From contig JAFEAY010000003.1 of the NCBI GenBank assembly GCA_018266175.1, positions 168,642 through 232,641 on the forward strand: DNA of 64,000 nt, read 5' to 3'. The stretch is from Candidatus Babelota bacterium (lineage in GTDB: Bacteria; Babelota; Babeliae; Babelales; RVW-14). The translations under genes were made by a program, and so were the position numbers. Under the pieces are notes generated by a model. That model had not been told where the DNA came from, made no database searches, and was given only the letters and a program-made list of their open reading frames with translations. This document shows, one piece after another, positions 45,272 through 62,648 of this stretch (the first letter of the stretch is position 1; each line of letters opens with the position of its first letter).

Positions 45272-45378
45272 AACATAAATCATCAAAATCCTCGCCCGTG
45301 CGGGGATTTTTTTATTTATGCTATACTTGTCAGTATAAAAAAATATCGTTTCACCTCTTTCCCGAAAGAGTGCAAAAC

Positions 45379-47070: not shown

Positions 47071-47185
47071 AAGTAACGTTGCTGGTTAACTTCAACTCAA
47101 AATACAATTTTTGCGATCACCAAAATATGCTATACTTAGCCCAACGTATATAACACACCCCCTAACAACCTGCTAGGAGTGCTCA

Positions 47186-48097
47186 ATGGTATTTCTTGAC
47201 CCCCGCAACGATGTTGCATTCAAAAAAATATTCGGATCAGAAGATCACAAAAATATCACCATCTCATTTCTCAACTCCATCTTAGAATACACGGGCGATC
47301 GAGCAATTAAAAGCATCACCTTCATGAACACCGAACAGCTTGAAATTGTTCGCCTCAAAAAAGAGAACGTCCTTGATATCATGTGTGTTGACCATGCCGG
47401 CAGCCAATTCATTGTCGAGATGCAGGTTGAAAACGTTAAAGAGTTTGGCAAACGCATGGTCTATTACGGCGCAAAAACCTACACCATTCAGCTCAGCAAG
47501 GGTAAACCTTACTACAAACTCACCCCCGTTATTGTGATAGCAATCACCAACTTCATCATGTTCCCAGACAAAAAAGATTACAAATCAATCCATCACCTTG
47601 CAGATACCAAAACAGGTGAAAACGACCTCAAAGAGCTGTACTTTGCTTTTGTCGAACTCCCTAAATTTAAGAAAAAAGAATCTGAGCTTAAATCTGCCGA
47701 AGATAAATGGATCTATTTTATCAAGACGATGAAAAAGCAAACCGAAATTCCAGCCCCTCTTGCCCGAGGTGAATTTGAAGATGCGTGCCATATGGCACAG
47801 CGTGCCGCTTGGTCTGAAGATGAACTCAACGCTTATGATGATGCATTTGTCAAAGCAACCGATGCTCAAACATCTGCAGAACTGGCTGAAGAAAAAGGAC
47901 TAGAACGCGGTCTTAAAAAAGGCTTAGAACAGGGCTTAGAACAGGGCTTAGAACAGGGCTTAGAACAGGGCTTAGAACAGGGCAAAGCTAAAACCCAACG
48001 CGAAATGGCTCGAAAGTTACTTTCCAAAATGAGCATTGCTGATATTTCAGAACTTACCGGCTTATCAATTGAAGAAATTGAGGCGCTCAAAGATTAA
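47186..48097 (+). CDS. Rpn/YhgA-like PD-(D/E)XK recombination-promoting nuclease / putative transposase
   Basis: N-terminal LDPRNDVAFKKIFGSEDHKNITISFLNSIL. Nuclease core LDIMCVDHAGSQFIVEMQV. C-terminal (GLEQ)5 repeat. Confidence 0.75.
   Translation: MVFLDPRNDVAFKKIFGSEDHKNITISFLNSILEYTGDRAIKSITFMNTEQLEIVRLKKENVLDIMCVDHAGSQFIVEMQVENVKEFGKRMVYYGAKTYTIQLSKGKPYYKLTPVIVIAITNFIMFPDKKDYKSIHHLADTKTGENDLKELYFAFVELPKFKKKESELKSAEDKWIYFIKTMKKQTEIPAPLARGEFEDACHMAQRAAWSEDELNAYDDAFVKATDAQTSAELAEEKGLERGLKKGLEQGLEQGLEQGLEQGLEQGKAKTQREMARKLLSKMSIADISELTGLSIEEIEALKD
47921..47980 (+). repeat. 12-bp tandem repeat x5 (ggcttagaacag) encoding (GLEQ)5
   Basis: Read directly. Preceded by two degenerate units (GLER, GLKK). 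Confidence 0.95.
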
Positions 48098-48125
48098 TTT
48101 TTATACTAAAAACCGGGTGTTCTTC

Positions 48126-48156
48126 AAAAAGTAGCACAGCTTGTGCTACTTTTTCA
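48126..48156 (+). terminator. Rho-independent terminator
   Basis: aaaaagtagcac-agcttg-tgctactttttc. Confidence 0.7.
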
Positions 48157-48207
48157 TAAGCAAGAAAATTAGATTACGAAGTAGGATAACAGATCCTCAA
48201 TTTCCCC

Positions 48208-48269
48208 TTCACACTACTCCTCTCAAACCATTTTTGCAAAATACTTGATCTGCCTGCTCTGCTTGCATA
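48208..48269. repeat. Cassette-bracketing repeat R1 (44-nt core at 48226-48269)
   Basis: ttcacactactcctctcaAACCATTTTTGCAAAATACTTGATCTGCCTGCTCTGCTTGCATA. The core differs at no more than 2 positions from R2 and R3. Confidence 0.85.
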
Positions 48270-48280
48270 AATGAGCAAAT

Positions 48281-48708
48281 CTATCGAGTAAGCTGCAATG
48301 TGTGCTGAAGCTGCTCAAGAAACATAACGCTTTTTGTACGACCAATTTTTTTAAGATCTTCTTGTGCACCAAATAGAGCCAACTTAAAATCAGCTGAATC
48401 TTTAATTACGGTTACAACATTCAAGATTTCTTGAACAAATTGCGACAGATGGTTTTTTATAATATCAAAAATATCTTCATAATTGAGTCCAAAATATTCA
48501 TGCGAAATAACATTTCTGAAGTCTACAACTTTCCTCCATTTTGGATTAACAAGATGTTGAAGCGTTGTTGATTTTAATAGACGGCCGTAAAAAGCAATTC
48601 ATCTGAAACAAAATTGATTGGGTCTGTGACATGAGCCATGTGTCGAGCAACAGCATCGCTTGCAACAAGTATATCAATAATAAAAAACTCAGCTTTGCGA
48701 TTAAGCAT
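48281..48708 (-). pseudogene. hepT: HEPN/DUF86 toxin (HepT-like), frameshifted
   Basis: ATG at 48708 overlaps the mntA stop by 8 nt. It translates MLNRKAEFFIIDILVASDAVARHMAHVTDPINFVSDELLFTAVY then TAA at 48576-48574. A second frame continues ...KWRKVVDFRNVISHEYFGLNYEDIFDII... (the RxxxxH HEPN motif) to the stop at 48283-48281. Confidence 0.7.
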
Positions 48709-49006
48709 AAATAAGATCCTTTTCAACATGATGCATGATGAAACTTCTTACTGAATCGAAATAACCAACATCAACCTTTTTGCCAAATCTTTGCTCTAAG
48801 AAATCACGCAGCTCAAGTCGCTTCTCAAAACTTTTATGTGGCATTTCAATAAGAAGATCAATATCACTATCTGGCCCTGCTTCGCCTCGTGCGTAAGAAC
48901 CAAAGAGAGCAATTTTTATAACGCCAAATTCTTTTTCAAGTAAGCTCTTATTGCCTTTGAGAAATTGGATAATAATCTCTTTGTCACAACCTTGTTCTTG
49001 TATCAT
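48701..49006 (-). CDS. mntA: Minimal nucleotidyltransferase (MntA-like antitoxin)
   Basis: ALFGSYARGEAGPDSDIDLLIE (GS...DxD of the NTP_transf_2 fold), 101 aa. Confidence 0.8.
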   Translation of the reverse strand: MIQEQGCDKEIIIQFLKGNKSLLEKEFGVIKIALFGSYARGEAGPDSDIDLLIEMPHKSFEKRLELRDFLEQRFGKKVDVGYFDSVRSFIMHHVEKDLIYA

Positions 49007-49103
49007 TTTTCATCCTCCAAAAAGTTTTTTACAACACCAGTTTCAGCTTACCATAACTTGGGGCAAGACAAAGTAGCCTCTCTTTTTTCCTGTTTTTTGC
49101 TGA

Positions 49104-49185
49104 TTCACACTACCCCTCACAAACCATTTTTGCAAAATACTTGATCTGCCAGCTCTGTTTGCATAGGCTCAAAAGTAAACTTACA
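49104..49185. repeat. Cassette-bracketing repeat R2 (core 49122-49165)
   Basis: ttcacactacccctcacaAACCATTTTTGCAAAATACTTGATCTGCCAGCTCTGTTTGCATAggctcaaaagtaaacttaca. Confidence 0.85.
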
Positions 49186-49288
49186 AACTAGCTTCTATAC
49201 CGTTCATTATTTTTGTTGATGAGGTTGTTGTTTTCAACACAACTTGGTGCAATAGAGCAAAAAAATAAATTTTGAATAATTTGCTCAC

Positions 49289-49615
49289 TTATTTATAAAG
49301 GTGAGTCAAATCTAAAGAAATTTGATGTCCATTTCGCTCGATAAGAACCTTACACCCAAGGCCATTTAAAACTTTAAAGAAACTTCCCATATTGAAATCT
49401 TTGTTAATTCCTGAGCGCATGCCTTGGATAACCGTTGGTGATACCCCTGCAAGCTTTGCAAGCCTCCTTACGGAGATTTTATCTTCTTCCATCGCAGCAA
49501 GAATCATTTCTGACAACAAAAGATCTTTATATTCTTCGTCAAAAGCTTTTTTTTCTTTTGGACTTAATGATTCAATAAATGTATCGATCGTTGATTTTAT
49601 CTTTTTATTAGCCAT
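49289..49615 (-). CDS. XRE-family HTH antitoxin (HigA-like), paralogue 2
   Basis: Start at the ATG at 49615 (GGAGAC upstream). ISVRRLAKLAGVSPTVIQGMRSG. Collinear with 42229-42561. Confidence 0.7.
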   Translation of the reverse strand: MANKKIKSTIDTFIESLSPKEKKAFDEEYKDLLLSEMILAAMEEDKISVRRLAKLAGVSPTVIQGMRSGINKDFNMGSFFKVLNGLGCKVLIERNGHQISLDLTHLYK

Positions 49616-49628
49616 AAGAGTCTCCAAT

Positions 49629-49991
49629 TTAAAACCTTTTTTCATAATTTTCTTTTGCCTTTAAAGCTCGTTCTTTTTCTCTTGGTGGGATCTTTTTTGT
49701 TTTCTTTTCATATGCATTCGTAACAATTACCTTTGAACCATCAAAGAAAAAACATAAAAATCTATCTGGTTGTGGCTTCAAGGCATAAATCTGATCACCC
49801 TCGTAACAAAACTTTTCTTTGTTAAATATTTTTCCGCTATCACCAAGCAGTAAAAAGAGCTGCGCAACCTTCTTCTTCCTAGCTGGAGTAAGGCTTTCAA
49901 AATATTCAAGCGCTTCACTTTTTCCTCGGTCATCAGAGTACCATATCAACGTAAACTTTTTACCCAGATACGCCATGAATTTTTCTTTCAT
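49629..49991 (-). CDS. Type II toxin, Gp49/HigB-like, paralogue 2
   Basis: Start at the ATG at 49991 (GAGGAG upstream). FMAYLGKKFTLIWYSDDRGKS..., NKEKFCYEGDQIYALKPQPDRFLCFFFDGSKVIVTNAYEKKTKKIPPREKERA. Confidence 0.7.
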   Translation of the reverse strand: MKEKFMAYLGKKFTLIWYSDDRGKSEALEYFESLTPARKKKVAQLFLLLGDSGKIFNKEKFCYEGDQIYALKPQPDRFLCFFFDGSKVIVTNAYEKKTKKIPPREKERALKAKENYEKRF

Positions 49992-50162
49992 CGGCTCCTC
50001 AAGCAAACAGATGTGGGATGTTTAGAATCATAAATAAACGTACCACGATCATAATACATTGTCCATTAATTTAAGATAATCGCACAGCAAGACGACTCGG
50101 CTGCTTGACTCATAATACCGTCCTCTTCACCACCAATTCACCCTAACTCCTTTACGATCATC

Positions 50163-50226
50163 AACCATTTTTGCAAAATACTTGATCTGCCTGCTCTGTT
50201 TGCATACGCTCAAAAGTAAACTTACA
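50163..50226. repeat. Cassette-bracketing repeat R3 (core 50163-50206)
   Basis: AACCATTTTTGCAAAATACTTGATCTGCCTGCTCTGTTTGCATAcgctcaaaagtaaacttaca, with weaker similarity extending upstream to about 50126. Confidence 0.85.
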
Positions 50227-50235
50227 GGTTAGGCA

Positions 50236-50559
50236 ATTCTATCTTGTTGCGATGCAAAGCAATCTTGATGAACCTAAAGCGACAGGATGGCCTCTTGACT
50301 CGCTGTAGCCTCCTGGCTCGCCATAGCTTGAAAAGCGACGGCGGCTGGCAGAGGCGGTTGGGCGCCCGGCGAACTCAGCCAATCCGTCGCTAGAGCTTTG
50401 CGATAGAGAGTAATACCGCAATCGGTAAACTTTGGTGGGGTTTCCAAGGGGCTGGCCGCCCGACTTCGCGTAAAGCTACGACGGGCTGGCAGCCCAGATG
50501 GCGGGCATGTCCGCCGTAGTTCGTAGAACGTAGGAGGATGGTAGGTACCGCGTACCTAC
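50236..50559. repeat. GC-rich mosaic repeat, arm A (inverted relative to arm B at 59076-59510)
   Basis: Block 50499-50559 is the reverse complement of 59076-59136 with 2 mismatches in 61 nt. Further collinear blocks pair 50427-50449 with 59188-59210, 50369-50400 with 59236-59267, and 50267-50290 with 59281-59304. The track ORFs here (50239-50632) look like artefacts of GC richness. Confidence 0.8.
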
Positions 50560-50644
50560 AAAAAGATAAGCTATAAAAAATAATATTCTCTCCAAGCAAA
50601 ATGAATACCATCGATAAGTTATAAACGAACAATGTTATTTTGGT

Positions 50645-50674
50645 GGATCCCGGATCGGAGTCCGGGATGACATC
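50645..50674. repeat. Small palindromic element GGATCCC-hairpin-GGGATGACATC
   Basis: ggatcccggatcggagtccgggatgacatc has the same ends as the copy at 59754-59783 (opposite strand). Confidence 0.6.
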
Positions 50675-50820
50675 GTGGGATATTAAAAACCAGTTTTAAT
50701 TCGTAGCTCTGGTATTCATAAATGAAGTAGAAATGGTACTGATCGATAAAATGAGAAAAATAATAATTTAAAAAACATTGCACAGATACCTAAGCCGAAT
50801 AATCTTAAAAAGGAGACCGT

Positions 50821-52296
50821 ATGATGAAAACAAACCTCATTGCGCTACGCCGCATAACCTTCCTAGCCCTGGCACTGACCGCCAGCACGGCACTGCTGGC
50901 CGACGGCGACGCCAGCAACAAAACCTTCTTGTCACCACGCTCGCCAAGCGTGAACATGGCGCACAAGTACACCACATGGGCTGACCATGTGTATGGCAAG
51001 CGCTGCGGCAAGGCACAGACCAGCTTTCAGCTGACTGGATTCTTTTCGGAATCGGAAAAGGGGAAAGATTTAGGGAACTATTTTGGTATTGGGAATAAGA
51101 GCAACAGCTTTACGGTTGGCCCAACAACTGCGCCTGGTGAAATCAATACAGATTTCTTAATGCATGATTTTGCAGGAATTGGAAATGCTTCTGGCACTAT
51201 CACCCTTGCTCCACGCCAAGAAGCCTGGGGCGCACGCTTAGACTTCTTTCAAGACCTTCATTTCCGATTTGGAAAATTCTTTATTGCAGCCACTCTCCCT
51301 ATCGTTCATGTACAACAAAACATGCGCATCCAAACAACCGATGGTTTGCCAACTCGAGCTATTGGCGGCACACAATTTACCCTTGAAGATTTTTTCAGTG
51401 GAAAATTTGAAAACGCTGATCCTGCTGATGCTGAAAATAAACAATCAGCACTGACTAAAGCAAAAATTGGTGGCAGCCATTCAGAAACAGGCGTTGCTGA
51501 CATCGAACTTGAACTTGGCTGGAAAGCACTTGAAAGCAAAAAGTGCCATATTTTCTTAAACCTTGGCTTCACCATTCCAACCAGCAACAAGGCTGATGGC
51601 GAATTTTTGTTTGAGCCGATCTATGGCAACGGCGACCACTTCGCCTTTGGTGGCGGCATTGATGCTGGCGTAACCTTGTGGTGCAAAGATAAGAACAAAG
51701 TCCGCTTGCTTCTTGCTGGAGACTACCGTTTCTTATTTGACAATACACAAAAGCGTACGCTGGGAGTTATGGACGATGTCGGCGTACCACAGAGATTTGG
51801 TCATTATGCTGCAGGCTATAAACTTCTCCAGGATCCAGGAACCCCACTTTTTCCACTAGCAAATGTATTAACACAAAATGTTGGCGTTGAACCGGGTAGT
51901 CAAATTGATGCACTTGCAGCACTTTCGTTCAACTTCTGCCGCTTAACTTTTGATGCTGGTTATAACCTCTTCTGGAGAGATAAAGAATCAGTCAAAGTAA
52001 AAGCTTGGGAAGATGGAGTTTACTACCAAGCTAGCATTCTTCGCGATGCAACTGATGCTTTTACTCTTGTTAATGCAGGTCTTGACACTCCTATCAATCG
52101 TAAAAATTTAAACATCGCGGCAGCAGCAACACCATCACTCCTTTCTCATAAAATATTTGGTAGCTTGGCTTACTCAGGCAAAATTAAAAATCAGTATCCA
52201 TGCAGCTTTGGTGTAGGCGGATCGTATGAGTTTGCTGATACCAACGCGGACCTTGAAAATTGGAGCGCTTGGATTAAAGCAATTCTCTCATTCTAA
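50821..52296 (+). CDS. Outer-membrane beta-barrel protein, paralogue 3
   Basis: Signal peptide ITFLALALTASTALLA, NKTFLSPRSPSVNMAHKY, YGNGDHFAFGGGIDAG, AGYNLFWRD, C-terminal IKAILSF. AGGAGA precedes the ATG. Confidence 0.65.
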   Translation: MMKTNLIALRRITFLALALTASTALLADGDASNKTFLSPRSPSVNMAHKYTTWADHVYGKRCGKAQTSFQLTGFFSESEKGKDLGNYFGIGNKSNSFTVGPTTAPGEINTDFLMHDFAGIGNASGTITLAPRQEAWGARLDFFQDLHFRFGKFFIAATLPIVHVQQNMRIQTTDGLPTRAIGGTQFTLEDFFSGKFENADPADAENKQSALTKAKIGGSHSETGVADIELELGWKALESKKCHIFLNLGFTIPTSNKADGEFLFEPIYGNGDHFAFGGGIDAGVTLWCKDKNKVRLLLAGDYRFLFDNTQKRTLGVMDDVGVPQRFGHYAAGYKLLQDPGTPLFPLANVLTQNVGVEPGSQIDALAALSFNFCRLTFDAGYNLFWRDKESVKVKAWEDGVYYQASILRDATDAFTLVNAGLDTPINRKNLNIAAAATPSLLSHKIFGSLAYSGKIKNQYPCSFGVGGSYEFADTNADLENWSAWIKAILSF

Positions 52297-52387
52297 AAAA
52301 TCAGCAACCCCACTCTTCCTGAGTGTTTTTGCGCAATGAAATGAAGCAAAAAAGTATCGAATGATTTTGAGTAATAAAAATCTATAG

Positions 52388-52416
52388 AGGCGCTCAATTG
52401 ATGAGCGCCTTTTTTC
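52388..52416 (+). terminator. Rho-independent terminator
   Basis: aggcgctca-attg-atgagcgcct followed by tttttc. Confidence 0.75.
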
Positions 52417-52446
52417 ATGCGATCTGATCAGTCATACAAATCAAGA

Positions 52447-52498
52447 TTATTTTCAAAATTAAAAATTATTGACTTATATTTCAAATAGAGAATATCAT
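52447..52498 (+). promoter_or_regulatory. Conserved AT-rich promoter motif (copy 4) for the 1414-aa protein gene
   Basis: attattttcaaaattaaaaattaTTGACTtatatttcaaatagagaaTATCAT: -35 at 52469-52474, 18-nt spacer, -10 at 52493-52498. Confidence 0.5.
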
Positions 52499-52553
52499 TA
52501 GGTTAGGATATAAAATTTTTCTAAAGATACTATTTATATTGAAAGGGATTTCC

Positions 52554-55500
52554 ATGATCAAGAAACAGGCCCTCGTGTGGGGGATAGCTATTATCCTAAC
52601 AGCGATTGGATCGTTCCATTTATATGGAATGATGAAAACCCCTGAAGGGACCCAAGAGGCACAAGAAATAAATAGAATCGTTAAAAGTATTAATGACGCT
52701 CCAACATCAGTAGCTAAGATTAAGGCTCTGCCACTTTATAAAAGATATGAAGAGCTTATCACTCATCCTCACCTTGCAGGTAAGCCATTGGGAAATACGG
52801 TTATACCTAAGCTTAAAACAAAAGTTAAAGATACTTTCACAGCAGCAAGTCCAGCCGATTTTACTAGTTCTGATGCAAGCGTTCAGGCAAATGTAACTGA
52901 ATATACAGTCAAAGCTGCCGATGCAGATATTAAAGCCGCCGCTGGAGCTATCGCTGCTTCAACCGACGCAGAAAAAATTGATCGCATGCTTGCTCAAGTC
53001 ACTCCACTTGTTAAACCAATTGAAGATGCAATCGTCGCCGCTGCAGCCTTCAAAGCAAGTGATTATGATCCTCGCTTACTTGCTTTAAAAGCAGGAAAAG
53101 ATGTTGCTTTCAAATTACCATTTGCTGATTCTTTAGAAAAATTGGCAGGCGCGAACAACTATCCAGATAAACTCGCTCAAATCAAAGCTGATATAGCAGC
53201 AATTAAAGGAAATCAGCCAGTTAATCTTAAAGACCCACTCACAACTCCTGGCGGAGTTAAACCAACCGTCAACGGAGGAGCTCTTGCAGAGGTCAAAGAT
53301 GGCCCAAGTGCCACTGCATTTTACACAGCAGTAAAAGCACTTTCAGACGATATTCTTCCAAAGCTTAACCTTGATACCATTAAACAAGCTTTTGCTGATG
53401 TATCCAGGGCTCCTGGAAAAACGTTTACTTTTGCTGACGGTTCTAAAAAGGTAGCAGGTGTTGGGGCTACTAGAGTTGAAACTCGAATGCATAAGTACAG
53501 CCTGCGTAACAAAATCCTCGCTGCCCTTGGCATTACAACCTACAACGACGCTGATGCTAACTTTGCGAACCGCTTTACAGCTACCAAGCCAGACGGCGTT
53601 GCAGCAACACTGTTAGCTATTAAAGCTATTGTTGATCCAGCGCGTACAGCATGGATAGATGTAGATGGAGTAAATGGAACTCATGGAAAAGATGGTTGCT
53701 TCACATCCCTTTCTGCGGCTCAAAAAAATGACGTCAACTATAAGTCTTTCGTAAATGATCCAGCAGGAAGCAACGTAGATTACCCTCGCTTCACATCAAT
53801 AGGCTCAACAGAATATACAAGTTTCAAAAATTTATGGGATGAATTTAATGCTATCTTTACTCTAGCACACGGTGCTGTAAGAGGTGCAGCAAAGAGTCTT
53901 CCAACAGCAACGAAAGCTGCAAATCCAAACGATCGCATGAAAAAAGACCTCTCTGCTCGCCTTGCAGCAGCTGAAGCACTTGCTGCAAAACTTGGAGTTG
54001 ATCACACAACTGCCAATTCAATGAAAAAACTATTGCATGATGTAACGAATCTCAAGGCACCAACGCTCGCAAAAATTGCTATTGCTGGAACAGATTATTT
54101 CTTTACCGACAATAAAACTAATGGTGGAAACAAATCTTGGAAAGCATTTGCAACCGCTGCTGACGATCTGGCAAAAACTCTTAAAACACCTGATCAATTA
54201 GTTGCTGAAGCCAAAGCGTTTCTTTCAGCATTCCTTGGCAAAAATGCTGCCTTGACCGCTGATGAACCATCAGTACAACTTACCATTTCAGGCGCAAACA
54301 AATCATTGTTTCAAGCGCTGTCTGAATTTAAAACTGATATTGCAAAACGAGCAAAGCATACAGACCTCGATACCGATGCAACACACAGCGCTAACTACAA
54401 ACTTATTAAGAAAGTACTGGATCCAAAAGAGTTCAAATCAGTTGATGGTACTGAGCTTGGTAGCTTCTTTGATACAGCAAATGATTTCGCCTCATTACCA
54501 AAAGCAACATTATCAATGGCAACTGGAACCGGTGGCGCAGAATCGGATGATAATAAAAAGAAATTCTTTGAAGCTGCTCAACAGTTTGTAGCTGAGTTAA
54601 AGAAACTTCAACAGGACCTAGGCATAGCTGCAGCAGCTAATGCCGCAGATCGTGGTACAGCATTCGAAGCACAGGCTACTGCAATGAAAGCAGTTGCAGG
54701 ATTCTTACCAAATGAAATGCTTGCAATGGGTAAAGACATTCTTGGCTTCTTTGTCGGACAAAAGAAGGCCCTGACAAAAGCTATCAATGCTGGCAAGGAT
54801 GGAAGAAACCTCAATTTCAAGGACAAAACTGGTGGTGGTAAGAAGTATGAAAATCAAACCTGGTTTGAAGCTCTTACTTGGCTGAAGAAGCGCTTAGACG
54901 CACGCGGTATCGTCGCCAATGATGCTGGAACTGATGCAGAAAAGATGCTTTATTCTATCAACGAGCTTTTTGATCCAGCGCAATCTACAGGTACTGTTTC
55001 TGGTACAACGGAGAGTCTTGCAGACTTCAATATAACAGCTAATTTCCCTGCAACAGTTACGAATGCTGCTATTAATCCTAAAGCTGCAAGTGATGATGAT
55101 AAGCATCTCTTCTACGAAGCAGCAAAAGCATTCAGAACTAAACTAAATGCAATTTGTAATAAGTTCTCAGATCCTATAACTGATACAACCGGCAACAAAT
55201 TTGAGGATAATTCACGTGCATTGCTCGATGCGCCAACATTAATGACGCAAACCAAAGTGGCACCAGGCATTACGGCACCAGGATTCGATCCTGCTACTGT
55301 CGCTACCTTCCTTGATGCAATGACCATCCAAGACGTATGGAGAATTGCAACCGGTGCGTACCGCATGATCCGTGACGTGGCGTTCCGCGTACATCCATCA
55401 CAACTTCGGGATGCAACTGGAGCTAACTTAGGCGTAATTCCAGCAGCTTACACCGATGCGGTTGGACTCCTCAATGCCTACCACACCTTTGATGCGCTCA

Positions 55501-56798
55501 CAGCAGTGAATTTAGATAATGCGCTGTACGGAAAAGTTAAAACTGCATGGAATACCGGCGCTAACCTTGCGGACAAACAAACTGCACTCGGCACAATTCT
55601 GACGGATGCCAAAACACTTGCTGGTCGATTGGTAACCTTTATGCGCGATGGCCGTATACAGGCACTTGCAGCGCTGTCTACTGCAAATGGTGCTTTCGCA
55701 TTTCATTCAACTAATGCTGCTATCAACACTGCAATTGAAGCTGTGGTTGGAACGGTCAACGATAACAACGCAGCAAATACCATCTACGGCAAATTGAAGG
55801 CAGCAACAGAGACGTATGATCAGCTGCATGACCTTGCAAGCAAGATTCATCCAACACATGGAGTTCCTCATGATCAAGCAGATCTCTGCGCGGCACTTAA
55901 TAGCTACCGCACAGAAATGATGGAGTTCATTGCTGATCCGTTGCACTGGAATGCGCGTAATAAACTTGCAACTGTAGCTGATGCTAATCACTCAAGGGAT
56001 AATATTATTGAACCAACGAAAGTCAGACTTGCAACCTGGGCAACAACCGGATCAAAGCTTGCTGATCTTACTAAGCAAGGCACCCCATCAGCTAAACTCA
56101 CCGCAGATCAACTCAAGCTTCAAGAACTCCTTGGTGCACCCGGTGGTACTATTTATGGTCTCTGGTTCTGGGCAAATGATATCGCTGAGCAATTGCCACC
56201 AAAAGCAATTGTTGGCACGCCAAAACCAACCGATGCTGTCTACAACACATACGCTGCTGCAATTGATAATGCAAGGGCCTTGTTAAATAACGCTCTGGCC
56301 GGCCAAGCAAGTATTCAGAACAAAGTGGCGGTGATAAAAACAAAAGCTGAAGCTGATGCATTGCTTACAAGCTTGAATGATGCGGTTGTTGCGCTTGAAG
56401 GTGCATTGTTTCAAGTGCTGACCCATCAGGTAGCACCAATTGAAAAAACGATTGCATTCTTAACACCTGTGGTTTCAGGTATTAAGTTTACTGCTACACT
56501 TGATAATGCAAGCACCAAAGAGTTCACGCTATTTAGTGCTGCTCAATTAGGTGCGAAAAAAACAGAAACAATTGCAACACTGAAAGCAACTCTTCCATCA
56601 TCAACTTTACAAATCTTATTTACGGGGCTTGGCGGAGCAACGATTCTACCTAAGAATGTGAGTACAAAGAGAGCTCAATTTATTATCGACGCACAGGCGG
56701 CATTAGAGTTAAATAGAGCTAATATTAAGGCTGCAGGATTTACCGATAGCAATGTTAATGACTTAAAAGCAGCGATAGGTGAAAAGTATAGAAAATAG
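52554..56798 (+). CDS. Very large (1414 aa) Ala-rich exported protein, unknown function
   Basis: Start at the ATG at 52554 (GAAAGGGA upstream; the track uses TTG at 52539). Signal or anchor segment ALVWGIAIILTAIGSFHLYG. Low Cys and high Ala/Lys/Thr content. An internal recurring motif SDD(N/D)K..F(F/Y)EAA..F...L occurs at least twice, about 170 aa apart. Confidence 0.7.
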   Translation: MIKKQALVWGIAIILTAIGSFHLYGMMKTPEGTQEAQEINRIVKSINDAPTSVAKIKALPLYKRYEELITHPHLAGKPLGNTVIPKLKTKVKDTFTAASPADFTSSDASVQANVTEYTVKAADADIKAAAGAIAASTDAEKIDRMLAQVTPLVKPIEDAIVAAAAFKASDYDPRLLALKAGKDVAFKLPFADSLEKLAGANNYPDKLAQIKADIAAIKGNQPVNLKDPLTTPGGVKPTVNGGALAEVKDGPSATAFYTAVKALSDDILPKLNLDTIKQAFADVSRAPGKTFTFADGSKKVAGVGATRVETRMHKYSLRNKILAALGITTYNDADANFANRFTATKPDGVAATLLAIKAIVDPARTAWIDVDGVNGTHGKDGCFTSLSAAQKNDVNYKSFVNDPAGSNVDYPRFTSIGSTEYTSFKNLWDEFNAIFTLAHGAVRGAAKSLPTATKAANPNDRMKKDLSARLAAAEALAAKLGVDHTTANSMKKLLHDVTNLKAPTLAKIAIAGTDYFFTDNKTNGGNKSWKAFATAADDLAKTLKTPDQLVAEAKAFLSAFLGKNAALTADEPSVQLTISGANKSLFQALSEFKTDIAKRAKHTDLDTDATHSANYKLIKKVLDPKEFKSVDGTELGSFFDTANDFASLPKATLSMATGTGGAESDDNKKKFFEAAQQFVAELKKLQQDLGIAAAANAADRGTAFEAQATAMKAVAGFLPNEMLAMGKDILGFFVGQKKALTKAINAGKDGRNLNFKDKTGGGKKYENQTWFEALTWLKKRLDARGIVANDAGTDAEKMLYSINELFDPAQSTGTVSGTTESLADFNITANFPATVTNAAINPKAASDDDKHLFYEAAKAFRTKLNAICNKFSDPITDTTGNKFEDNSRALLDAPTLMTQTKVAPGITAPGFDPATVATFLDAMTIQDVWRIATGAYRMIRDVAFRVHPSQLRDATGANLGVIPAAYTDAVGLLNAYHTFDALTAVNLDNALYGKVKTAWNTGANLADKQTALGTILTDAKTLAGRLVTFMRDGRIQALAALSTANGAFAFHSTNAAINTAIEAVVGTVNDNNAANTIYGKLKAATETYDQLHDLASKIHPTHGVPHDQADLCAALNSYRTEMMEFIADPLHWNARNKLATVADANHSRDNIIEPTKVRLATWATTGSKLADLTKQGTPSAKLTADQLKLQELLGAPGGTIYGLWFWANDIAEQLPPKAIVGTPKPTDAVYNTYAAAIDNARALLNNALAGQASIQNKVAVIKTKAEADALLTSLNDAVVALEGALFQVLTHQVAPIEKTIAFLTPVVSGIKFTATLDNASTKEFTLFSAAQLGAKKTETIATLKATLPSSTLQILFTGLGGATILPKNVSTKRAQFIIDAQAALELNRANIKAAGFTDSNVNDLKAAIGEKYRK

Positions 56799-56836
56799 TA
56801 AATAACACAATTGTGTAAGTTAATTTTTAACATATT

Positions 56837-57190
56837 ATGCTTAAGGAGAATACCGTGTTGAATATGTGCAGAAAAATATTAATACTACTATTGCTTTCCC
56901 AGGGGTTATACACTACTAAGTCTTTTGCGGCTACAAAAGCTGAACTACAAGGAGCTGTTGAATCACTTATAAAGGAAATTGACACATTTGTAACAGATAA
57001 AATAGACCCAATAGTTGTGGCTGGAAATGCTCTTGTAGCTGAACAGACTACCGGCACTCTAATTGATGGATCAGGCGATGTATCCGCGACAGGAATTGGT
57101 TATGTACATGAAATAGCCGACGGGCTAACGGGAATTGAATTTAGAGAATTAGATCAAACTGATATTGATAAAATTTATATCCCGCAATAG
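56837..57190 (+). CDS. Small exported hypothetical protein (about 110 aa)
   Basis: Signal peptide ILILLLLSQGLYTTKSFA. AAGGAG at 56843-56848 favours a GTG at 56855 or ATG at 56864 start, so the start is uncertain. Confidence 0.5.
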   Translation: MLKENTVLNMCRKILILLLLSQGLYTTKSFAATKAELQGAVESLIKEIDTFVTDKIDPIVVAGNALVAEQTTGTLIDGSGDVSATGIGYVHEIADGLTGIEFRELDQTDIDKIYIPQ

Positions 57191-57216
57191 GTTGATGCTG
57201 CAAATAATTAAGACTG

Positions 57217-57252
57217 AAAAAGGGCTTCGCTTTTTACGGCGAAGCCTTTTTC
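57217..57252. terminator. Bidirectional hairpin terminator between convergent genes
   Basis: aaaaagggcttcgc-tttttac-ggcgaagccttttt. Confidence 0.7.
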
Positions 57253-57260
57253 CATTACTT

Positions 57261-57312
57261 GGATCCCAACCTTGCCACGCCATAGCTTTATGCCACGGCG
57301 GGCCCCCCAAAC
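57261..57312. repeat. Truncated GC-rich mosaic element (GGATCCCAA... with gccatagc module)
   Basis: ggatcccaaccttgccacgccatagctttatgccacggcgggcc shares its GGATCCCAA start with 59783-59754 and the agctatggcg module (reverse complement) with 50.3 and 59.4 kb. Confidence 0.5.
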
Positions 57313-57355
57313 TTCATATCTGAGCGAGTCGGTCAGTCTTTAATATCTTATTATA

Positions 57356-58831
57356 TTAAACTAAGTTTCTGAACTTATTAATAAACGTGTATGTCTGAAA
57401 CACATTCTGAATATCTTGGCAATCGTCTTGACGAGCTTGATAAACAGCGTATGATCGCAAACCAACTAGAGAAAGATGTGCAAGCAAATCTTGACGCGTA
57501 TTGTTCTGAGGCAAGCTGTTCAAGTAAGCTTGAGCTGCATCTTTGGTAGCAAAACATGCTTTAACTTTCTCACCAAGTGCAACATACACCGCATGAAGGT
57601 TTGCTCTTTGGGCTTCAGCTGCAAAATCATCAGCGGTAGCTACTCTATGTAACTCTTCAGCTTGTACACGCAATGCTTGAAAATACGCAATAACTGCATC
57701 CACATTGCCACCATCAGCAGCAACATCAGGAGCAACTAAGCCATGAAGTGCACGGTTGATGTCATTAAACGCGCTGTTTGCATCTTCTACAAACAGACCT
57801 GCGCCCTTTTTACCTGAAAAAGCCCAGTTCCATCCAGCTTTAACACCGTTCCAGGTAGCCTTAACAGGAGCAACTGTTGCGTAGTAAGCAGGGGTAACGG
57901 TTGCATGGTACGCAACATTACCAACAGACTTTGCAGCCTTGCTGATCAAGCCAGGTTTTGCGAGGCGCTCTACTTCTTCTTGGTTTGCAGCATGAAAGCG
58001 AGCCGTGAGGTCTGCTTTTGCTTGAAGGATTTGAGCATCAAAAGCATCAACATCAACATCAGCAAGACGAGCTTTGCGTGCTGCACGGGCAACGATACGA
58101 GCTTCTGCCAAGGTATACATGTGAGCTTTATTTGCTTGAGCGGCTGTCATTGTTGGGATAGCATTAACTATAGTTATTGTAAAATTAGCAATATAGTCTT
58201 TGTAGTCTTGTTCGGCTATATCAGAACGACATAAATCGACAATCAAGATATCTTTAAGGGATTGGCCAATTTTGAGTTCATCACGTTGCTTAAGCAATTC
58301 AGCTTTTGCAGCATTATCAAGACCATTACATCTTTTTGCAATGTTCAAAAGAGTGATCATGTTTTTCTTGTTTACATACGCTTTAACAGCGTTGATGTAG
58401 TTAACAACTGAGTCATGAGCAACATCTTTTCGAAGTGTTTTAAGAAGAACAAGCTTTGCTTCAAATGCAGCTGCTGCATCTTCAACTTCAATAATGTCAG
58501 CTGTTTTATAGCCAGCGGCTACAGCTTTTTTGTTATGTTCGGTTGCAGTAGTTGAAGCTGCAATCAACTCAGTTTCTTTAGCAGCAATCGCTTGTCTTAC
58601 TGAAGAACGTTTGAAACCGGCTTCTTGATCAATCAACGAAGTTCTAAGCGTATTTGCAAGGACTTGCTTGAGAGCAGCCTTGAAATCGGTAACTTTTTGA
58701 CCGATGTTCTCAGCGGTAATGTTTTGGATAGCTGTAACTGGTTGAACAACAGCGACGGTGTCTGCATGCAATGAAAGCATGCCACAAAACGTAAGTGCAG
58801 CGGCACCTAAAGATCGTCTTACAAAATTCAT
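57356..58831 (-). CDS. Ala-rich exported protein (491 aa), unknown function
   Basis: Start at the ATG at 58831 (GGAGG upstream). Signal peptide SLGAAALTFCGMLSLHA. The composition is helical and Ala-rich, like the 1414-aa neighbour. Confidence 0.65.
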   Translation of the reverse strand: MNFVRRSLGAAALTFCGMLSLHADTVAVVQPVTAIQNITAENIGQKVTDFKAALKQVLANTLRTSLIDQEAGFKRSSVRQAIAAKETELIAASTTATEHNKKAVAAGYKTADIIEVEDAAAAFEAKLVLLKTLRKDVAHDSVVNYINAVKAYVNKKNMITLLNIAKRCNGLDNAAKAELLKQRDELKIGQSLKDILIVDLCRSDIAEQDYKDYIANFTITIVNAIPTMTAAQANKAHMYTLAEARIVARAARKARLADVDVDAFDAQILQAKADLTARFHAANQEEVERLAKPGLISKAAKSVGNVAYHATVTPAYYATVAPVKATWNGVKAGWNWAFSGKKGAGLFVEDANSAFNDINRALHGLVAPDVAADGGNVDAVIAYFQALRVQAEELHRVATADDFAAEAQRANLHAVYVALGEKVKACFATKDAAQAYLNSLPQNNTRQDLLAHLSLVGLRSYAVYQARQDDCQDIQNVFQTYTFINKFRNLV

Positions 58832-58904
58832 AATAACCTCCATACGAATAAGAAATAGACGAAAAACATTTTCTACGAGTATTTTATATTATTCACATTG
58901 GTGA

Positions 58905-58935
58905 GTAATACTTCTGTTACTATAACAAAAGTAAA
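58905..58935 (-). promoter_or_regulatory. Possible copy of the conserved promoter motif upstream of the 491-aa protein gene
   Basis: The minus strand reads gaaTTTACTtttgttatagtaacagaagTATTAC. The TTTAC(A/T)TTTG(A/T) core resembles copies 1-3, but the spacer is 19 nt. Confidence 0.35.
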
Positions 58936-59075
58936 TTCGGGCTGCAAACGGGGGGTGGTTTACAGGGGTGGCACCCCTGTAGGCTAGAAGGATGGTATTT
59001 GATGGATGGTTGTTATCCTAAACTCAAAGCTCAACCTGCTTTAGATTATGGTTTTTATCTAAACTCCCGTGTTTC

Positions 59076-59510
59076 GTAGGTACGCGGTACCTACCATCCT
59101 CCTACGTTCTACGAACTATGGCGGACAGGCCCGCCAAGGTACATCCCGCTCATGCTGAGTGCCCAGCTTGCTGGGTGTATCGAAGCACCTTGGAAACCCC
59201 ACCAAAATTTGTCCAACTCTTAATTACTCTTTTTTCGAAGCCTTAGCAACGGGTTGGCTAAGTTCGCAAGGCGCTCAAGGCCACCCTGTTGCTTTAAGTT
59301 CACCAAAATTACTCTGTACCTGTTATAAATTCCGCCTGAGCTCTAACAAGCCGGAGCCTGTCCGCTTAAGTTCACTACGACTAAGCTCCCGACGTCGCCC
59401 TCTGGGCTATGGCGAGGCAGGCAGGATAAACTCTGTTCAAAGAACGAAGGCGGGAGCAAGGTTGAAGAGATTCAGCTGTGCGGCGCTCTTCGACTAAGCC
59501 TATACCTGCA
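59076..59510. repeat. GC-rich mosaic repeat, arm B
   Basis: See arm A. It starts with the hairpin gtaggtac-gcg-gtacctac and contains extra copies of modules (cctgtccgcttaagttcac, gggctatggcgagg). The track ORF 59159-59497 is considered non-coding. Confidence 0.8.
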
Positions 59511-59602
59511 AGTCGCACAGATTATTGACCCGTGTTACCAAATTTGATAACATTCTATTAGGTGTAAGCCATATTTTTTTAAAATCTCAAACAGGTGTTT
59601 TA

Positions 59603-60047
59603 ATGAAAAAACATACCTCTAAAAAAGTTTTAACCGTGTTTTTCTATCAAGATAAACCGGGAAAAGCACCTGCTTTAGAATTTATATAACGCGAACTCGA
59701 TAATTCAAATTCTTTGTATTGACCCACTGGCTCAGTTGATTATCGATTTTCTAGGATGTCATCCCAAACTTGATTTGGGATCCAGCTGAATACGTTACAA
59801 CAAAGTTTTTTATACGATGGGATTTGATAAATATTATTGAAGCTTTTTTGATGGATTCCATCGATAATTTACGAATGAACAGGGCTTGTGGGAATTAAAA
59901 ACCAATTTGAGTAATAGAATTGCTCGATTTATTTTTGTTGTCAGAGATAATCAGATAGCAGTATTGCATGGCTTTATTAAAAAAACTCAGAAAACTCCGC
60001 GACAAGAAATTGAACTTGCACTCAGTAGATTAAAGAAGCTGGAATAA
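59603..60047 (+). pseudogene. Gp49/RelE-like toxin gene disrupted by repeat insertion and frameshifts
   Basis: ATG at 59603 gives MKKHTSKKVLTVFFYQDKPGKAPALEFI then TAA. The 3' part in another frame reads ...GLWELKTNLSNRIARFIFVVRDNQIAVLHGFIKKTQKTPRQEIELALSRLKKLE* (stop at 60045-60047). Repeat-derived DNA lies between them (59686-59790). Confidence 0.65.
59754..59783. repeat. Small palindromic element (GGATCCC-hairpin-GGGATGACATCC, minus orientation) inside the dead toxin gene
   Basis: Forward ggatgtcatcccaaacttgatttgggatcc; the reverse complement matches the 50645 copy at both ends. Confidence 0.6.
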
Positions 60048-60064
60048 AGAGAAGGATTTTAATC

Positions 60065-60355
60065 ATGAAAAAATTCAATAAAAAGCATAGAGGGCAAACA
60101 CTTGACAGCTTTCTTAAAGAAGAAGGAATTCTTGAGAAAACAGAAGCCGTTGCTCTTAAACGGATCATAGCATATCAATTGCTTGCTATTCTTGAAAATG
60201 AAAGCATCACTCAGACCGAGCTTGCTCAGAGAATGAAAACAAGTAAAGCTGCAATTAATAGACTACTCAACCCAGAAAACCCCTCAATCACTCTGTCTAC
60301 TCTTTTAAAAGTTGCACATGCTCTTGGTAAGAATCTTCAGATCTCTATTGCATAA
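60065..60355 (+). CDS. XRE-family HTH antitoxin partnered with the decayed toxin
   Basis: LDSFLKEEGILEKTEAVALKRIIAYQL...ITQTELAQRMKTSKAAINRLLNPENPSITLSTLLKVAHALGKNLQISI. This is the typical architecture of antitoxins downstream of Gp49-type toxins. Confidence 0.7.
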   Translation: MKKFNKKHRGQTLDSFLKEEGILEKTEAVALKRIIAYQLLAILENESITQTELAQRMKTSKAAINRLLNPENPSITLSTLLKVAHALGKNLQISIA

Positions 60356-60432
60356 CATTCAGCAGAGGTAAAGCAAAATGGATAAAAGACCTGATTATGA
60401 AACATTTAAGCTCAGTTAACAGAGAATACCCT

Positions 60433-60741
60433 ATGAAAACAAAAAAGCTTAATGATTACATTCAAACTCGTCTTACAAAAAAAGAGATTGCAGCCATCGA
60501 TAAACAAGCGCGGCTTGAAGTGCAAGCTCTTAAATCATTACAAAATGATATTACGTGCGCAATGAATGATTATATGAAGGAAAAAAACATTGGATTTAAT
60601 GAGCTTGTGCAGCGATTGAATGTAAGCCCTGCACATATAGCCAAAATCAAAAAAGGTGAAGCAAACTTAACGCTATCAAGCATCGCACGTATTTTTGCAC
60701 TACTTGAGCAAGAACCTCATTTAGTATTTAACAAAAAATAG
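60433..60741 (+). CDS. Second HTH (XRE-like) protein
   Basis: HTH GFNELVQRLNVSPAHIAKIKKGEANLTLSSIARIF. A 13-codon ORF (MDKRPDYETFKLS*, 60379-60420) just upstream may be the severed original N-terminus, so the start is uncertain. Confidence 0.55.
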   Translation: MKTKKLNDYIQTRLTKKEIAAIDKQARLEVQALKSLQNDITCAMNDYMKEKNIGFNELVQRLNVSPAHIAKIKKGEANLTLSSIARIFALLEQEPHLVFNKK

Positions 60742-61172
60742 TTAAAACTATGAATCAAAGACCAGAACAATACTCAGCAAGCGGACAGGTTGCTCCCCTA
60801 TAACCCCACATGAAGGGGGGCTTGCGGCAGAACCTGCCTGCCGCGCACCAGAAAAGCAATTTCTCTATCACAATATCGTAGATTGCCGATCTGATAACGC
60901 TATTGACAGAGCCTACTATGAAATCAAGACTGAAGCACTCGGAAGTCAAAAACTTCAGTGTTATTCCGAATCTGAGAAGACAGAGTCGATTACCACATTT
61001 TATGTCTAAAGGATAACACTCCTTATTCAAGCCACCTCAGCAATTCCTGATTTTTGTTTAAAAATCGGGAATTGCACTCCGTAAATTAGTATTAAAATAT
61101 GGACTTACACTCCGTAAATTACTACAATTATAAGGATCTACTATGAATAATTTGATTTTTAGGAGAATTTCT

Positions 61173-62300
61173 ATGATTGAACGATATTATAAAAATCTTA
61201 GTAATTACATAAAGCAAAACCATGTTCTTATCATTTTTGGCCCTCGTCAAGTTGGAAAAACGACCCTTTTAAAAAGCTTTCTCAGTCAAACAACGCTCAA
61301 ATACAAACTCGACTCGGGTGATAATATTCGTACACAGAATCTCTTAGGGTCGCAAGACTTTGATAAGATTTTGGAATATGCCCAAGGCTACAATCTTATA
61401 GCGATTGATGAGGCCCAACAAATACCAAATATTGGCATGGCGCTTAAAATTCTTGTTGATAATGTTCCAGGGCTTTCTATTATCGCTACAGGATCATCAT
61501 CATTTGATCTGTCACAATCGATAGGAGAACCGTTAACGGGAAGAAAATCAACACTGACGCTTTATCCTATTGCACAACTTGAACTTTCAAACATGTACAA
61601 TAAATATGAATTACGAGAGAAACTAGAAGATTTTTTAATTTTTGGTGGTTACCCGGCAGTTGTTTCTGCTCAAGCAAGACAAGAAAAAATAAGTATTCTT
61701 ACAGAACTTGTTGATTCATATTTATTGAGAGACGTTCTATCGATGGAAAGAATAAAAAAATCTGAAACACTTTTAAACCTTGTTAAATTATTAGCATTTC
61801 AAGTTGGACAACTTGTATCTCATAATGAACTTGCAACACAACTTTGTGTCGATGCAAAAACTGTAGCTCGATACTTAGATTTACTTGAAAAATCATTTGT
61901 CATTCACAAACTTGGAGCTTTGAGTAATAATCCAAGAAATGAAGTTACCGGCAAGCAGAAATATTATTTCCTTGATCTAGGGGTACGTAATGCGGTTATT
62001 GCACAATTCAATCCTTTGAACCTGCGTAACGATGTTGGCCAATTATGGGAGAATTTTGCATTTATCGAGAGACTCAAAAATACAACCTATAAAGGATTTT
62101 ATGGGAAGCGCTATTTTTGGAGAACATATCAGGGTCAAGAGGTTGATTTTATTGAAGAAATTGAACTTGAGCGAACAGCTTTTGAAGTAAAATGGTCTGC
62201 CAAGAAAAAAGTAAGTGCTCCTTCAGATTGGCTAGAAAATTATCCACAAGCCTCTTTTATTGTCATCACACCTGATAATTATCTCGAGTACCTAACCTGA
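61173..62300 (+). CDS. AAA-family ATPase with DUF4143-type C-terminal domain
   Basis: Start at the ATG at 61173 (AGGAGA upstream). Walker A FGPRQVGKTTLL, Walker B LIAIDEAQ, then LLAFQVGQLVSHNELATQLCVDAKTVARYLDLLEKSFVI (DUF4143-like winged helix). Confidence 0.75.
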   Translation: MIERYYKNLSNYIKQNHVLIIFGPRQVGKTTLLKSFLSQTTLKYKLDSGDNIRTQNLLGSQDFDKILEYAQGYNLIAIDEAQQIPNIGMALKILVDNVPGLSIIATGSSSFDLSQSIGEPLTGRKSTLTLYPIAQLELSNMYNKYELREKLEDFLIFGGYPAVVSAQARQEKISILTELVDSYLLRDVLSMERIKKSETLLNLVKLLAFQVGQLVSHNELATQLCVDAKTVARYLDLLEKSFVIHKLGALSNNPRNEVTGKQKYYFLDLGVRNAVIAQFNPLNLRNDVGQLWENFAFIERLKNTTYKGFYGKRYFWRTYQGQEVDFIEEIELERTAFEVKWSAKKKVSAPSDWLENYPQASFIVITPDNYLEYLT

Positions 62301-62493
62301 ACTTTTTTCAGCCAAAAACATGATTGCTTTTTTTATCTCTTCATCTGCATCAGCAGCAATTTTGGCAATTGCATAAAATGGACTCACTCTCCAGTTCTGC
62401 AAAAAATAGTCAATTAAGCGCTTCATAAGCCTCCATGGTTAAAAATCAGGGATAATTCTACTGCCCCATGTCTGAAAATCAGGCTTAATTTAA

Positions 62494-62646: not shown

Positions 62647-62648
62647 TT

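Follow-up and report, generated by a model that had tools for sequence, protein, structure and literature searches.

In a 64,000-nucleotide (nt) stretch of the genome of a Candidatus Babelota bacterium (an uncultured member of the Dependentiae, or TM6; contig JAFEAY010000003.1, positions 168,642 to 232,641; hereafter the window, numbered from its first letter), two GC-rich arms, arm A and arm B, border an 8.5-kb module of four genes—OMP3 and the genes for a 1414-amino-acid (aa) protein, a small exported protein and a 491-aa protein—whose products all carry signal-peptide-like N-termini. From the alignments described below, we conclude that the arms are diverged copies of one lineage-restricted non-coding element, which occupies the two borders of the module in several related lineages and in either orientation. 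We favor a reading, to which we give a probability of roughly 0.4, in which the arms would act as orientation-tolerant cis-regulatory or boundary elements, with an invariant 16-mer and a palindrome read by a common factor and with arm A also included in the OMP3 leader.

A repeat search of the window recovered the inverted arms at the positions where the sequence-only reading had placed them, with three collinear inverted pairs between 50312–50563 and 59072–59421 (Table 1). Homology of the pair was evident both with nhmmer (~230 nt aligned, E=1.9e-28) and with blastn (69.9% identity over 236 columns). A near-identical block, put at 61 nt in that first reading, extends to 65 nt at 95% identity and contains the longest perfect match between the arms (43 nt, 50517–50559 / 59118–59076). 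The description of the arms as a series of collinear blocks stood for the three inverted pairs, but not for a ~65-nt block with the M2 hairpin (CGCCATAGC-loop-GCGACGKCGG): this lies inside the first helix, P1, in arm A, but 5′ of P1 in arm B, so that the copies are not simply collinear. The hairpin noticed at the inner end of both arms is indeed present on the module side of each as GTAGGTACCGCGTACCTAC (50541–50559; 59094–59076), and the distances to the adjoining genes agreed as well, with 258–262 nt from arm A to the OMP3 ATG (50821) and 245 nt from arm B to the 491-aa start. Searching the window for the 19-mer and the 32-mer of the core gave exactly two occurrences of each, where shuffles predict none, and in the ~72 kb examined of this genome there are two full arm copies, both at the borders of one module. 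Across all copies, the element measures ~330–580 nt. The GC content of arm A (0.567) and arm B (0.519) contrasts with that of the window (0.407) and of the adjacent spacers (0.33–0.38).

To define the anatomy of the element, we aligned five copies, all in the same sense: arm A, arm B, B2 (the allele that replaces arm B in the sister contig L001; see below) and the copies from the related loci L030 and L031. The element is a chain of GC-rich stem-loops, consisting of P1, the 16-mer, a variable hairpin, optional further hairpins and a terminal palindrome. P1 comprises 13 pairs, five of which have changed compensatorily on both strands of the helix; pairing holds in 95% of cells, as opposed to 28–39% when the partners are slid, and the covariation score was reached by none of 500 shuffles. 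The 16-mer GGTGGGGTTTCCAAGG, which is non-palindromic, does not vary among the copies extending that far (arm A, arm B, B2 of L001, L028, L030, and L031), and the terminal 19-bp perfect palindrome GTAGGTAC-CGC-GTACCTAC is likewise the same wherever it is covered, in six copies (arm A, arm B, B2, L028, L029, and L031). The hairpin after the 16-mer, closed by CCAAGG/CCTTGG, is fixed in position and wholly different in its interior among copies; the presence or position of modules M2, M3, and M4 and of the variable hairpin differs among arm A, arm B, B2, L028, L029, and L031. On the sense strand, RNAalifold added a helix between GCUUYGC and the 16-mer that relies on several G-U pairs and cannot form on the other strand; the covariation test detected no covariation for this helix. 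A downstream hairpin in B2 stays paired through two G-U wobbles. Single-sequence folding z-scores (−2.2 and −3.5 for arm A, −1.5 and −2.1 for arm B) were alike on both strands and thus uninformative for assigning a strand.

We found no sign that the arms belong to a described RNA family or derive from a gene. At gathering thresholds, no Rfam 15 family matched anywhere in the window, and when the two arms were scanned permissively, only chance-level matches to unrelated families appeared (E≥0.25). The open reading frames (ORFs) overlapping the arms have no Pfam match, and a spurious 73-aa ORF called in arm A has no homolog but itself among 5.8 billion proteins; together with indels (insertions and deletions) of hairpin size, this argues against a coding or pseudogene origin. 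Motifs of integron attC sites, ops/JUMPstart, the hammerhead core and leader peptides could each be fitted to one copy by eye, but were rejected as they are not conserved across copies.

Comparison with sister strains revealed that the orientation of the arms is not fixed. Contigs L001, L002, and L011 match the window at 99.95% over 40822–58982 and regain identity (96–99%) at 59513, with the intervening 58983–59512 replaced by B2, an allele of 579 nt in the opposite orientation. The B2 core is 83–88% identical to arm B on the opposite strand, and the arms are consequently direct repeats in these three contigs. Arm B and B2 are not related by one inversion; rather, a core unit by the left flank and an M2 unit by the right flank are each flipped in place. 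Short inverted repeats, searched for at the edges of the flipped sub-blocks as a signature of site-specific inversion, were not found. The M2 hairpin itself occupies the P1 loop in arm A, a place 5′ of the core in arm B, the 3′ end of everything in B2 and a place by the closing strand of the variable hairpin in L029, and the extra modules of B2 recur in the surrounding island (M4 at 42642–42733, M3 at 60781–60820). As far as these contigs tell, the inverted arrangement in the window is one strain's allele—a strain-specific accident and not a design feature.

At least four related Dependentiae lineages have the element pair at the borders of the module, and its two positions are the same in every arm-bearing lineage. 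On the left border, arm A is kept upstream of OMP3 in the window, L028, and L029. L028 (OMP3 83% identical at the aa level) has the full AT-rich spacer and the part of the arm that starts with the 16-mer, at 87% identity and higher outside one swapped hairpin, and L029 (74%) has the 3′ part of the arm with a different internal hairpin and only ~70 nt of spacer. In L026 (76%), by contrast, D1 (a 69-nt repeat) is followed by ~87 nt and then OMP3, with no arm, and L009 and L010 (68% and 65%) also have no arm upstream of OMP3, with neighbouring gene order kept (in L009, BacA, three further genes—the last a 489-aa gene with a C-terminus like that of OMP2—and OMP3; in L010, OMP3 and then an AAA_14/DUF4143 gene). 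On the right border, the 491-aa orthologs in L030 (54% aa identity; from the same sample as L028) and L031 (46%) have a B2-type element upstream, with the core antisense to the gene. This is the case at five of the six loci on this side, the inverted arm B of the window being the exception. Over ungapped columns, identity to L001 is 88–90% for the upstream DNA of L030 and L031, compared with 77–78% at the nucleotide level for the adjacent coding sequences; likewise, the arm A region of L028 is 87% identical versus 81.7% for the stretch including OMP3. Whole modules of the element are present or absent between L001 and L031, and the contigs of L028, L029, and L030 all break inside it.

These data bear on the first of two interpretations offered in the sequence-only reading, namely that the arms are the inverted ends of a segment that is mobile (a composite transposon) or invertible (8.5 kb, turned by site-specific recombination). 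The window itself invites it, with inverted arms and a hairpin at each inner end. However, no transposase or recombinase is found inside or adjacent to the module, or anywhere in 40–64 kb, and the only integrase-family gene found (25129–26070) is ~25 kb away. Where an empty site had been predicted in related genomes, L009, L010, and L026 keep OMP3 with its flanking order and only the arm or leader varies, arguing that the module is resident and was not inserted. With the arms as direct repeats in L001, L002, and L011, and the B2 orientation also in L030 and L031, the inversion that terminal repeats of this kind require is lacking there. Nor did the anticipated inversion isoforms turn up at the assembly level, since L001, L002, and L011–L014 are all collinear with the window across the module and show it in one orientation. 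The outer ends, read without a formal duplication search, show neither a target-site duplication nor a terminal sequence in common. We regard a mobile or invertible segment as barely credible, and the comparative data illustrate that an inverted repeat around genes need not be a mobile or invertible unit. An integron array, with attC core sites of the form RYYYAAC ... GTTRRRY, was considered by eye: a GTTAGGC occurs at the D1/arm A junction, but D1 has neither a matching inverse core nor a palindromic structure, and no IntI-like gene was found among the window genes scanned.

The second interpretation—a regulatory module shared by OMP3 and the 491-aa gene as a leader placed in the same orientation—held in one respect, as homologous elements do occupy the same borders; a same-orientation leader, however, exists only in the window's allele. 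Because the arm on the 491-aa side is reversed in the sister contigs, L030, and L031, a shared leader of fixed orientation fails for arm B, and the 491-aa gene has a promoter-like site of its own (58948–58919) downstream of arm B. For arm A a leader is plausible, given that this arm stays upstream of OMP3 and that no terminator is predicted in between.

The variable orientation is easier to reconcile with a palindromic DNA site than with a leader that works in one direction, in line with our favored reading of the arms as orientation-tolerant elements. Arm A would most likely be transcribed within a long OMP3 5′ leader. The 16-mer, and especially the palindrome, which is the same on both strands, would most likely be recognition sites for a common factor, and such a factor at both arms would allow joint control of two convergent transcription units. 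The surrounding hairpin modules M2, M3, and M4 would be gained, lost and moved by recombination between copies. What the comparison shows is that the arms are homologous, share helix P1, keep the invariant motifs, lie at both borders in several lineages, vary in orientation and bear no mobile-element signature; transcription of the arms, binding of the factor and co-regulation are what we infer.

Several observations weigh against this reading. No convincing sigma-70-like promoter lies upstream of or within arm A, the distance from palindrome to start codon ranges from ~90 to ~385 nt and is thus unusual for an operator, and the covariation in P1 would be as compatible with folding of single-stranded DNA as with that of RNA. 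The AT-rich spacer beside arm A is about as conserved as arm A, so that the contrast with the coding sequences may reflect close relatedness combined with very fast surface-protein evolution and not constraint on the arm. Orthologous OMP3 loci without any arm in L026, L009, and L010 argue that the element is dispensable, and the shuffling of modules and in-place flipping of sub-blocks between alleles resemble the dynamics of repeat elements over those of a tightly constrained regulator. A bolder version, in which the arms represent an undescribed class of element that marks both borders, with a common factor co-regulating the convergent units and the arms serving as hinges for exchanging alleles of the module and its flanks, seems quite improbable to us; on this hinge reading, the in-place flipping of two sub-blocks would imply a rearrangement mechanism without a recognisable recombinase.

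An alternative is that the arms are essentially neutral or selfish mosaic intergenic repeats (BIME/REP-, BOX- or NIME-like) in tolerant divergent spacers of a recombination-prone island, built by insertion and gene conversion of GC-rich palindromic modules and with incidental effects at most, for example mRNA stabilisation. Module content and order do differ between copies, with M2 in four different places; the extra modules of B2 recur in the island, whole modules come and go between L001 and L031, orientation varies between strains, three lineages lack the arms and three contigs break inside the element, as assemblies do at repeats. What such repeats do not readily account for is that only two full copies exist in ~72 kb and border one module, that the same two positions are occupied in every arm-bearing lineage, that a non-palindromic 16-nt motif and a 19-bp palindrome are invariant while neighbouring stems vary, and that neither 185,579 species genomes nor the metagenome collection yielded a true match to the core 19-mer. 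We deem this explanation unlikely, albeit a serious contender.

Two further alternatives were considered. Each arm could encode its own structured RNA of small or medium size, the pair being sibling small RNAs with the 16-mer as a single-stranded seed or protein-binding site. The occurrence as GC-rich islands in AT-rich spacers, the covarying P1, hairpins of variable length at fixed positions and the promoter-like site immediately 5′ of arm B (59550–59521) would agree with this, as would the helix that RNAalifold forms with the 16-mer on the sense strand only and the B2 hairpin retained through wobbles; orientation independence would be natural for a free-standing gene. Yet no copy has an intrinsic terminator or a U-tract after the terminal hairpin, a conserved promoter is missing 5′ of arm A and of B2, the folding z-scores are unremarkable and alike on both strands, the G-U-rich helix is without covariation and there is no Rfam relative, and we consider sibling RNAs distinctly unlikely. 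Alternatively, the arms could be conserved anchors for replacing, deleting or, in this strain, inverting a hypervariable module by homologous recombination. Antigen-gene cassettes with their conserved flanks would be the nearest parallel. The module proteins diverge far faster than the flanking non-coding DNA, sister identity falls from 99.95% to 96–99% or nothing exactly at arm B, and the 43-nt perfect inverted match would suffice in length for RecA-type recombination. This proposal is nevertheless highly doubtful in our view: no assembly contains an inversion or deletion isoform, arm-to-arm identity within one genome is low outside one block, and the contigs of L028–L031 end in the arms, which hides any contrast in divergence between inside and outside.

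Table 1 Coordinates of the arms, their parts and neighbouring features in the window.
Feature	Position	Strand	Remarks
Arm A	50236–50563	+	Stem-loop chain; in the divergent intergenic region between a Gp49/helix-turn-helix (HTH) toxin-antitoxin operon (49289–50006, −) and OMP3 (+)
Helix P1 of arm A	50278–50391	+	5′ strand 50278–50291, 3′ strand 50378–50391
Insertion in P1 loop of arm A	50293–50357		65 nt; carries the M2 hairpin (50319–50344)
Invariant 16-mer of arm A	50434–50449	+	
65-nt block of arm A	50499–50563	+	95% identical to arm B; ends in palindrome 50541–50559
Arm B (window's allele)	59072–59510	−	In the divergent region between the 491-aa gene (−) and toxin-antitoxin remnants (+)
Parts of arm B			Palindrome 59094–59076; 16-mer 59203–59188; P1 5′ strand 59293–59280, 3′ strand 59258–59245; M2 59414–59389
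Inverted pair 1	50499–50563 / 59072–59136		65 nt, 95%
Inverted pair 2	50407–50453 / 59184–59230		47 nt, 77%
Inverted pair 3	50312–50344 / 59389–59421		33 nt, 76%
D1 repeat	50158–50226	+	69 nt; abuts outer end of arm A; copies also at 48208–48269 and 49117–49185
AT-rich spacer, arm A to OMP3	50564–50820	+	Contains ~80-nt repeat with small hairpin GGATCCCGGA..TCCGGGATGACAT (~50600–50680)
OMP3	50821–52296	+	491 aa; signal peptide, C-terminal Phe; paralog of 40151–41665 and 43753–45159
Giant Ala-rich exported protein	52539–56798	+	1419-aa ORF; 1414 aa as called on sister contigs; no Pfam match above curated cut-off
Small exported protein	56837–57190	+	117 aa
Ala-rich exported 491-aa protein	57356–58831	−	ATG 58831 preceded by GGAGG
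Promoter-like site of 491-aa gene	58919–58948	−	TTTGCA-N18-TATAGT with TG; downstream of arm B; conserved in L001
Perfect palindrome TACAGGGGTG-C-CACCCCTGTA	58961–58981		10+1+10; 99.95% sister identity ends right after it, at 58982
Back-to-back promoter-like sites	59521–59553	both	Outer end of arm B

The arms can be compared with BIME/REP, BOX, NIME/dRS3, and Correia repeats as well as with leaders and invertible switches. In kind, they appear closest to modular intergenic stem-loop elements (BIME, BOX, NIME) and to long leaders of surface operons, and seem to have no described relative. BIME/REP in Escherichia coli, BOX in Streptococcus pneumoniae, and NIME/dRS3 and Correia in Neisseria exist in tens to hundreds of dispersed copies per genome. 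Like BIME/REP, BOX, NIME, and Correia elements, the arms are extragenic, GC-rich relative to their surroundings and composed of stem-loop modules in variable order and number and in either orientation; REP, BOX, NIME, and Correia families also often lie beside surface-protein genes and can be co-transcribed, affecting expression of their neighbours. Of the arms, only two full copies and a few single modules are seen, all within 42–61 kb of the ~72 kb examined and the full copies always at the borders of one module; with 330–580 nt, the arms are also much longer than a REP, BOX, or Correia unit. The invariant non-palindromic 16-mer likewise sets them apart from REP, BOX, NIME, and Correia, families to which they are not known to be similar in sequence.

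Arm A shares with long structured leaders—JUMPstart/ops with RfaH-type factors, or the ompA 5′ untranslated region—its nature as conserved non-coding DNA upstream of an operon for exported proteins (here OMP3 and the 1414-aa gene) and, with leaders of the JUMPstart/ops type, a short invariant motif inside otherwise variable sequence. In contrast to JUMPstart/ops, however, the copies conserve no ops consensus, with a CGGTAGCG stretch in B2 that arm A and arm B do not share; moreover, the second copy mostly runs antisense to its neighbouring gene, and L026, L009, and L010 lack the element. An inverted-repeat pair around surface-protein genes recalls fimS, hin, and shufflons, and the two flipped sub-blocks are superficially shufflon-like. 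Unlike at those switches, however, a site-specific recombinase is not found in the vicinity and the flipped blocks are not edged by short inverted repeats; these blocks are 83–88% identical within flanks at 99.95%, which speaks against a recent switch, and no alternative orientation of the 8.5-kb module was observed. Finally, the arms recall the large bacterial non-coding RNAs in Rfam in their size, in being GC-rich within an AT-rich genome and in having a covarying helix, but none of these families matched the window at gathering thresholds.

To our knowledge, almost nothing has been reported about gene regulation, non-coding RNA or surface-antigen variation in Dependentiae, which are obligate intracellular parasites of protists. 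With orthologs of the module proteins 44–83% identical and the bracketing DNA at ~88–90%, the arms may offer a handle on how the surface of these bacteria is controlled or diversified. If a factor were to bind the invariant motifs, the phylum would have its first defined cis-regulatory element; as neutral mosaic repeats, the arms would still point to an island prone to recombination and to one cause of broken assemblies among metagenome-assembled genomes (MAGs) of Dependentiae. An intracellular lifestyle of the present organism is suggested by its gene content, as the window encodes leucine-rich-repeat and RING-finger proteins.

Searches for further family members were negative beyond the related lineages. 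The exact 19-mer TTTGGTGGGGTTTCCAAGG gave six matches in 185,579 species genomes, all in unrelated taxa or a MAG and none of the six with a second arm block; one of these loci, L003, was inspected and has no arm-like sequence. Ten matches to TTWGGTGGGGTTTCCAAGG in the metagenome collection are all without significant arm-like flanks (nhmmer E≥0.003), viral contigs contain no match to the palindrome and blastn of the arms against plasmids and phages found nothing. Without a true match to the 19-mer in species genomes or metagenomes, the family is not widespread. Two unrelated AT-rich contigs of metagenome Ga0210059 (L016 3025–3049 and L018 3826–3851) share a 22-nt exact match to arm A, TTTGGTGGGGTTTCCAAGGGGC, and have nothing else in common; this match is probably due to chance. 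Within the window, GC-rich and hairpin-rich stretches occur at 45160–45300 (downstream of OMP2) and at 57237–57337 (in the gap between the 117-aa and 491-aa genes, which converge). Similarity of these stretches to the arms (e.g., CACGCCATAGCTTTATGCCACGGCGGG at ~57270) is borderline, with a shuffled control made on 45160–45300 only. There, comparison with the reverse-complemented arm A gave forward-strand scores of 20–23 and 29 against a null mean of 18 and maximum of 27, and we discarded this stretch as a third arm-like copy since it is not clearly above the shuffled controls.

Promoter-like sites in this study are consensus matches only. Between D1 and OMP3, the window scan yielded neither a predicted terminator nor a strong promoter-like site. 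At the outer end of arm B, the site on the minus strand (TTATCA-N18-AATAAT, 59550–59521) faces arm B, lies immediately 5′ of it and is conserved in L001; the site on the plus strand (TTGACC-N17-TAACAT, 59525–59553) faces the toxin-antitoxin remnants. The palindrome at 58961–58981 is kept with two changes in L030 and L031 and has no T-run after it, and is therefore no typical terminator.

None of the four enclosed proteins has a Pfam match above the curated cut-off, and none matches a transposase or recombinase. OMP3 has 66 homologs, and those with a named source are all from Candidatus Dependentiae/TM6; the three paralogous OMP genes of the window (40151–41665, 43753–45159, 50821–52296) share 37–44% identity and each end in Phe. 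The 491-aa protein, for which gene callers choose an upstream ATG at 58843 (giving 495 aa), is only 44–54% identical to its orthologs in related lineages and 100% identical to the NCBI protein JST56_00970, encoded on a 461-kb contig of a Candidatus Dependentiae MAG. We rejected the idea that OMP3 and the 491-aa gene are paralogs, with the arms as part of a gene duplication, as the two are unrelated in sequence character and have no common family. An inverted duplication of a unit made of toxin-antitoxin genes plus arm was rejected as well, for the right HTH protein is 23% identical to the left, though TA1/TA2 are paralogs.

The module's neighbours are toxin-antitoxin genes, a PDDEXK_2 gene ~2 kb away and the AAA_14/DUF4143 gene. 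To the right of arm B (58983–62900, compared with L001 18163–21476), the strains differ by indels, by genes and by a diverged AAA_14/DUF4143 gene, which puts arm B at the edge of a hypervariable stretch; by its predicted genes, this is an islet made up of toxin-antitoxin and ATPase genes. In the window, a Gp49-like gene lacks its start owing to a 205-bp indel at 59881, an HTH gene (60397–60741) is present or absent between strains and the AAA_14/DUF4143 gene is too diverged for blastn. To the left, the three OMP genes (40151–52296) are interleaved with toxin-antitoxin cassettes and PD-(D/E)XK genes (45298–47070, 47186–48097). In L009, the genes from BacA to OMP3 are contiguous, without toxin-antitoxin or PD-(D/E)XK insertions, and in L010 a PDDEXK_2-like gene directly precedes OMP3.

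Smaller repeats populate the same island. Module M4 (42642–42762) forms a long hairpin, CCATCTCGCAGGG..CCCTGCGAGATGG, followed on the minus strand by the exact arm motif TAAAGCGACAGG at 42750–42761, and M3 (60775–60850) reads CCCC..ACCCCACAT..GGGGGG. The three window copies of D1 are 94–97% identical, two of them lying upstream (minus strand) of a small toxin-antitoxin gene set (MNT; Gp49/HTH), and L026 carries D1 at 1888–1960; D1 resembles a boundary or promoter segment common to toxin-antitoxin cassettes that have accumulated in tandem. The spacer between arm A and OMP3 holds a REP-like hairpin with a conserved tail (50640–50672, +) that has a counterpart at 59785–59750 (−), GGATCCCAAA..TTTGGGATGACAT, and occurs also at L001 18985–19015 and 19118–19150 and at L026 1745–1815, with compensatory stem changes. 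The ~80-nt repeat around it (50601–50673) matches L001 19080–19151, and the related GTCATTCCCGCGAAGGCGGGAAT of L026 fits the pattern ATTCCC-N8-GGGAAT.

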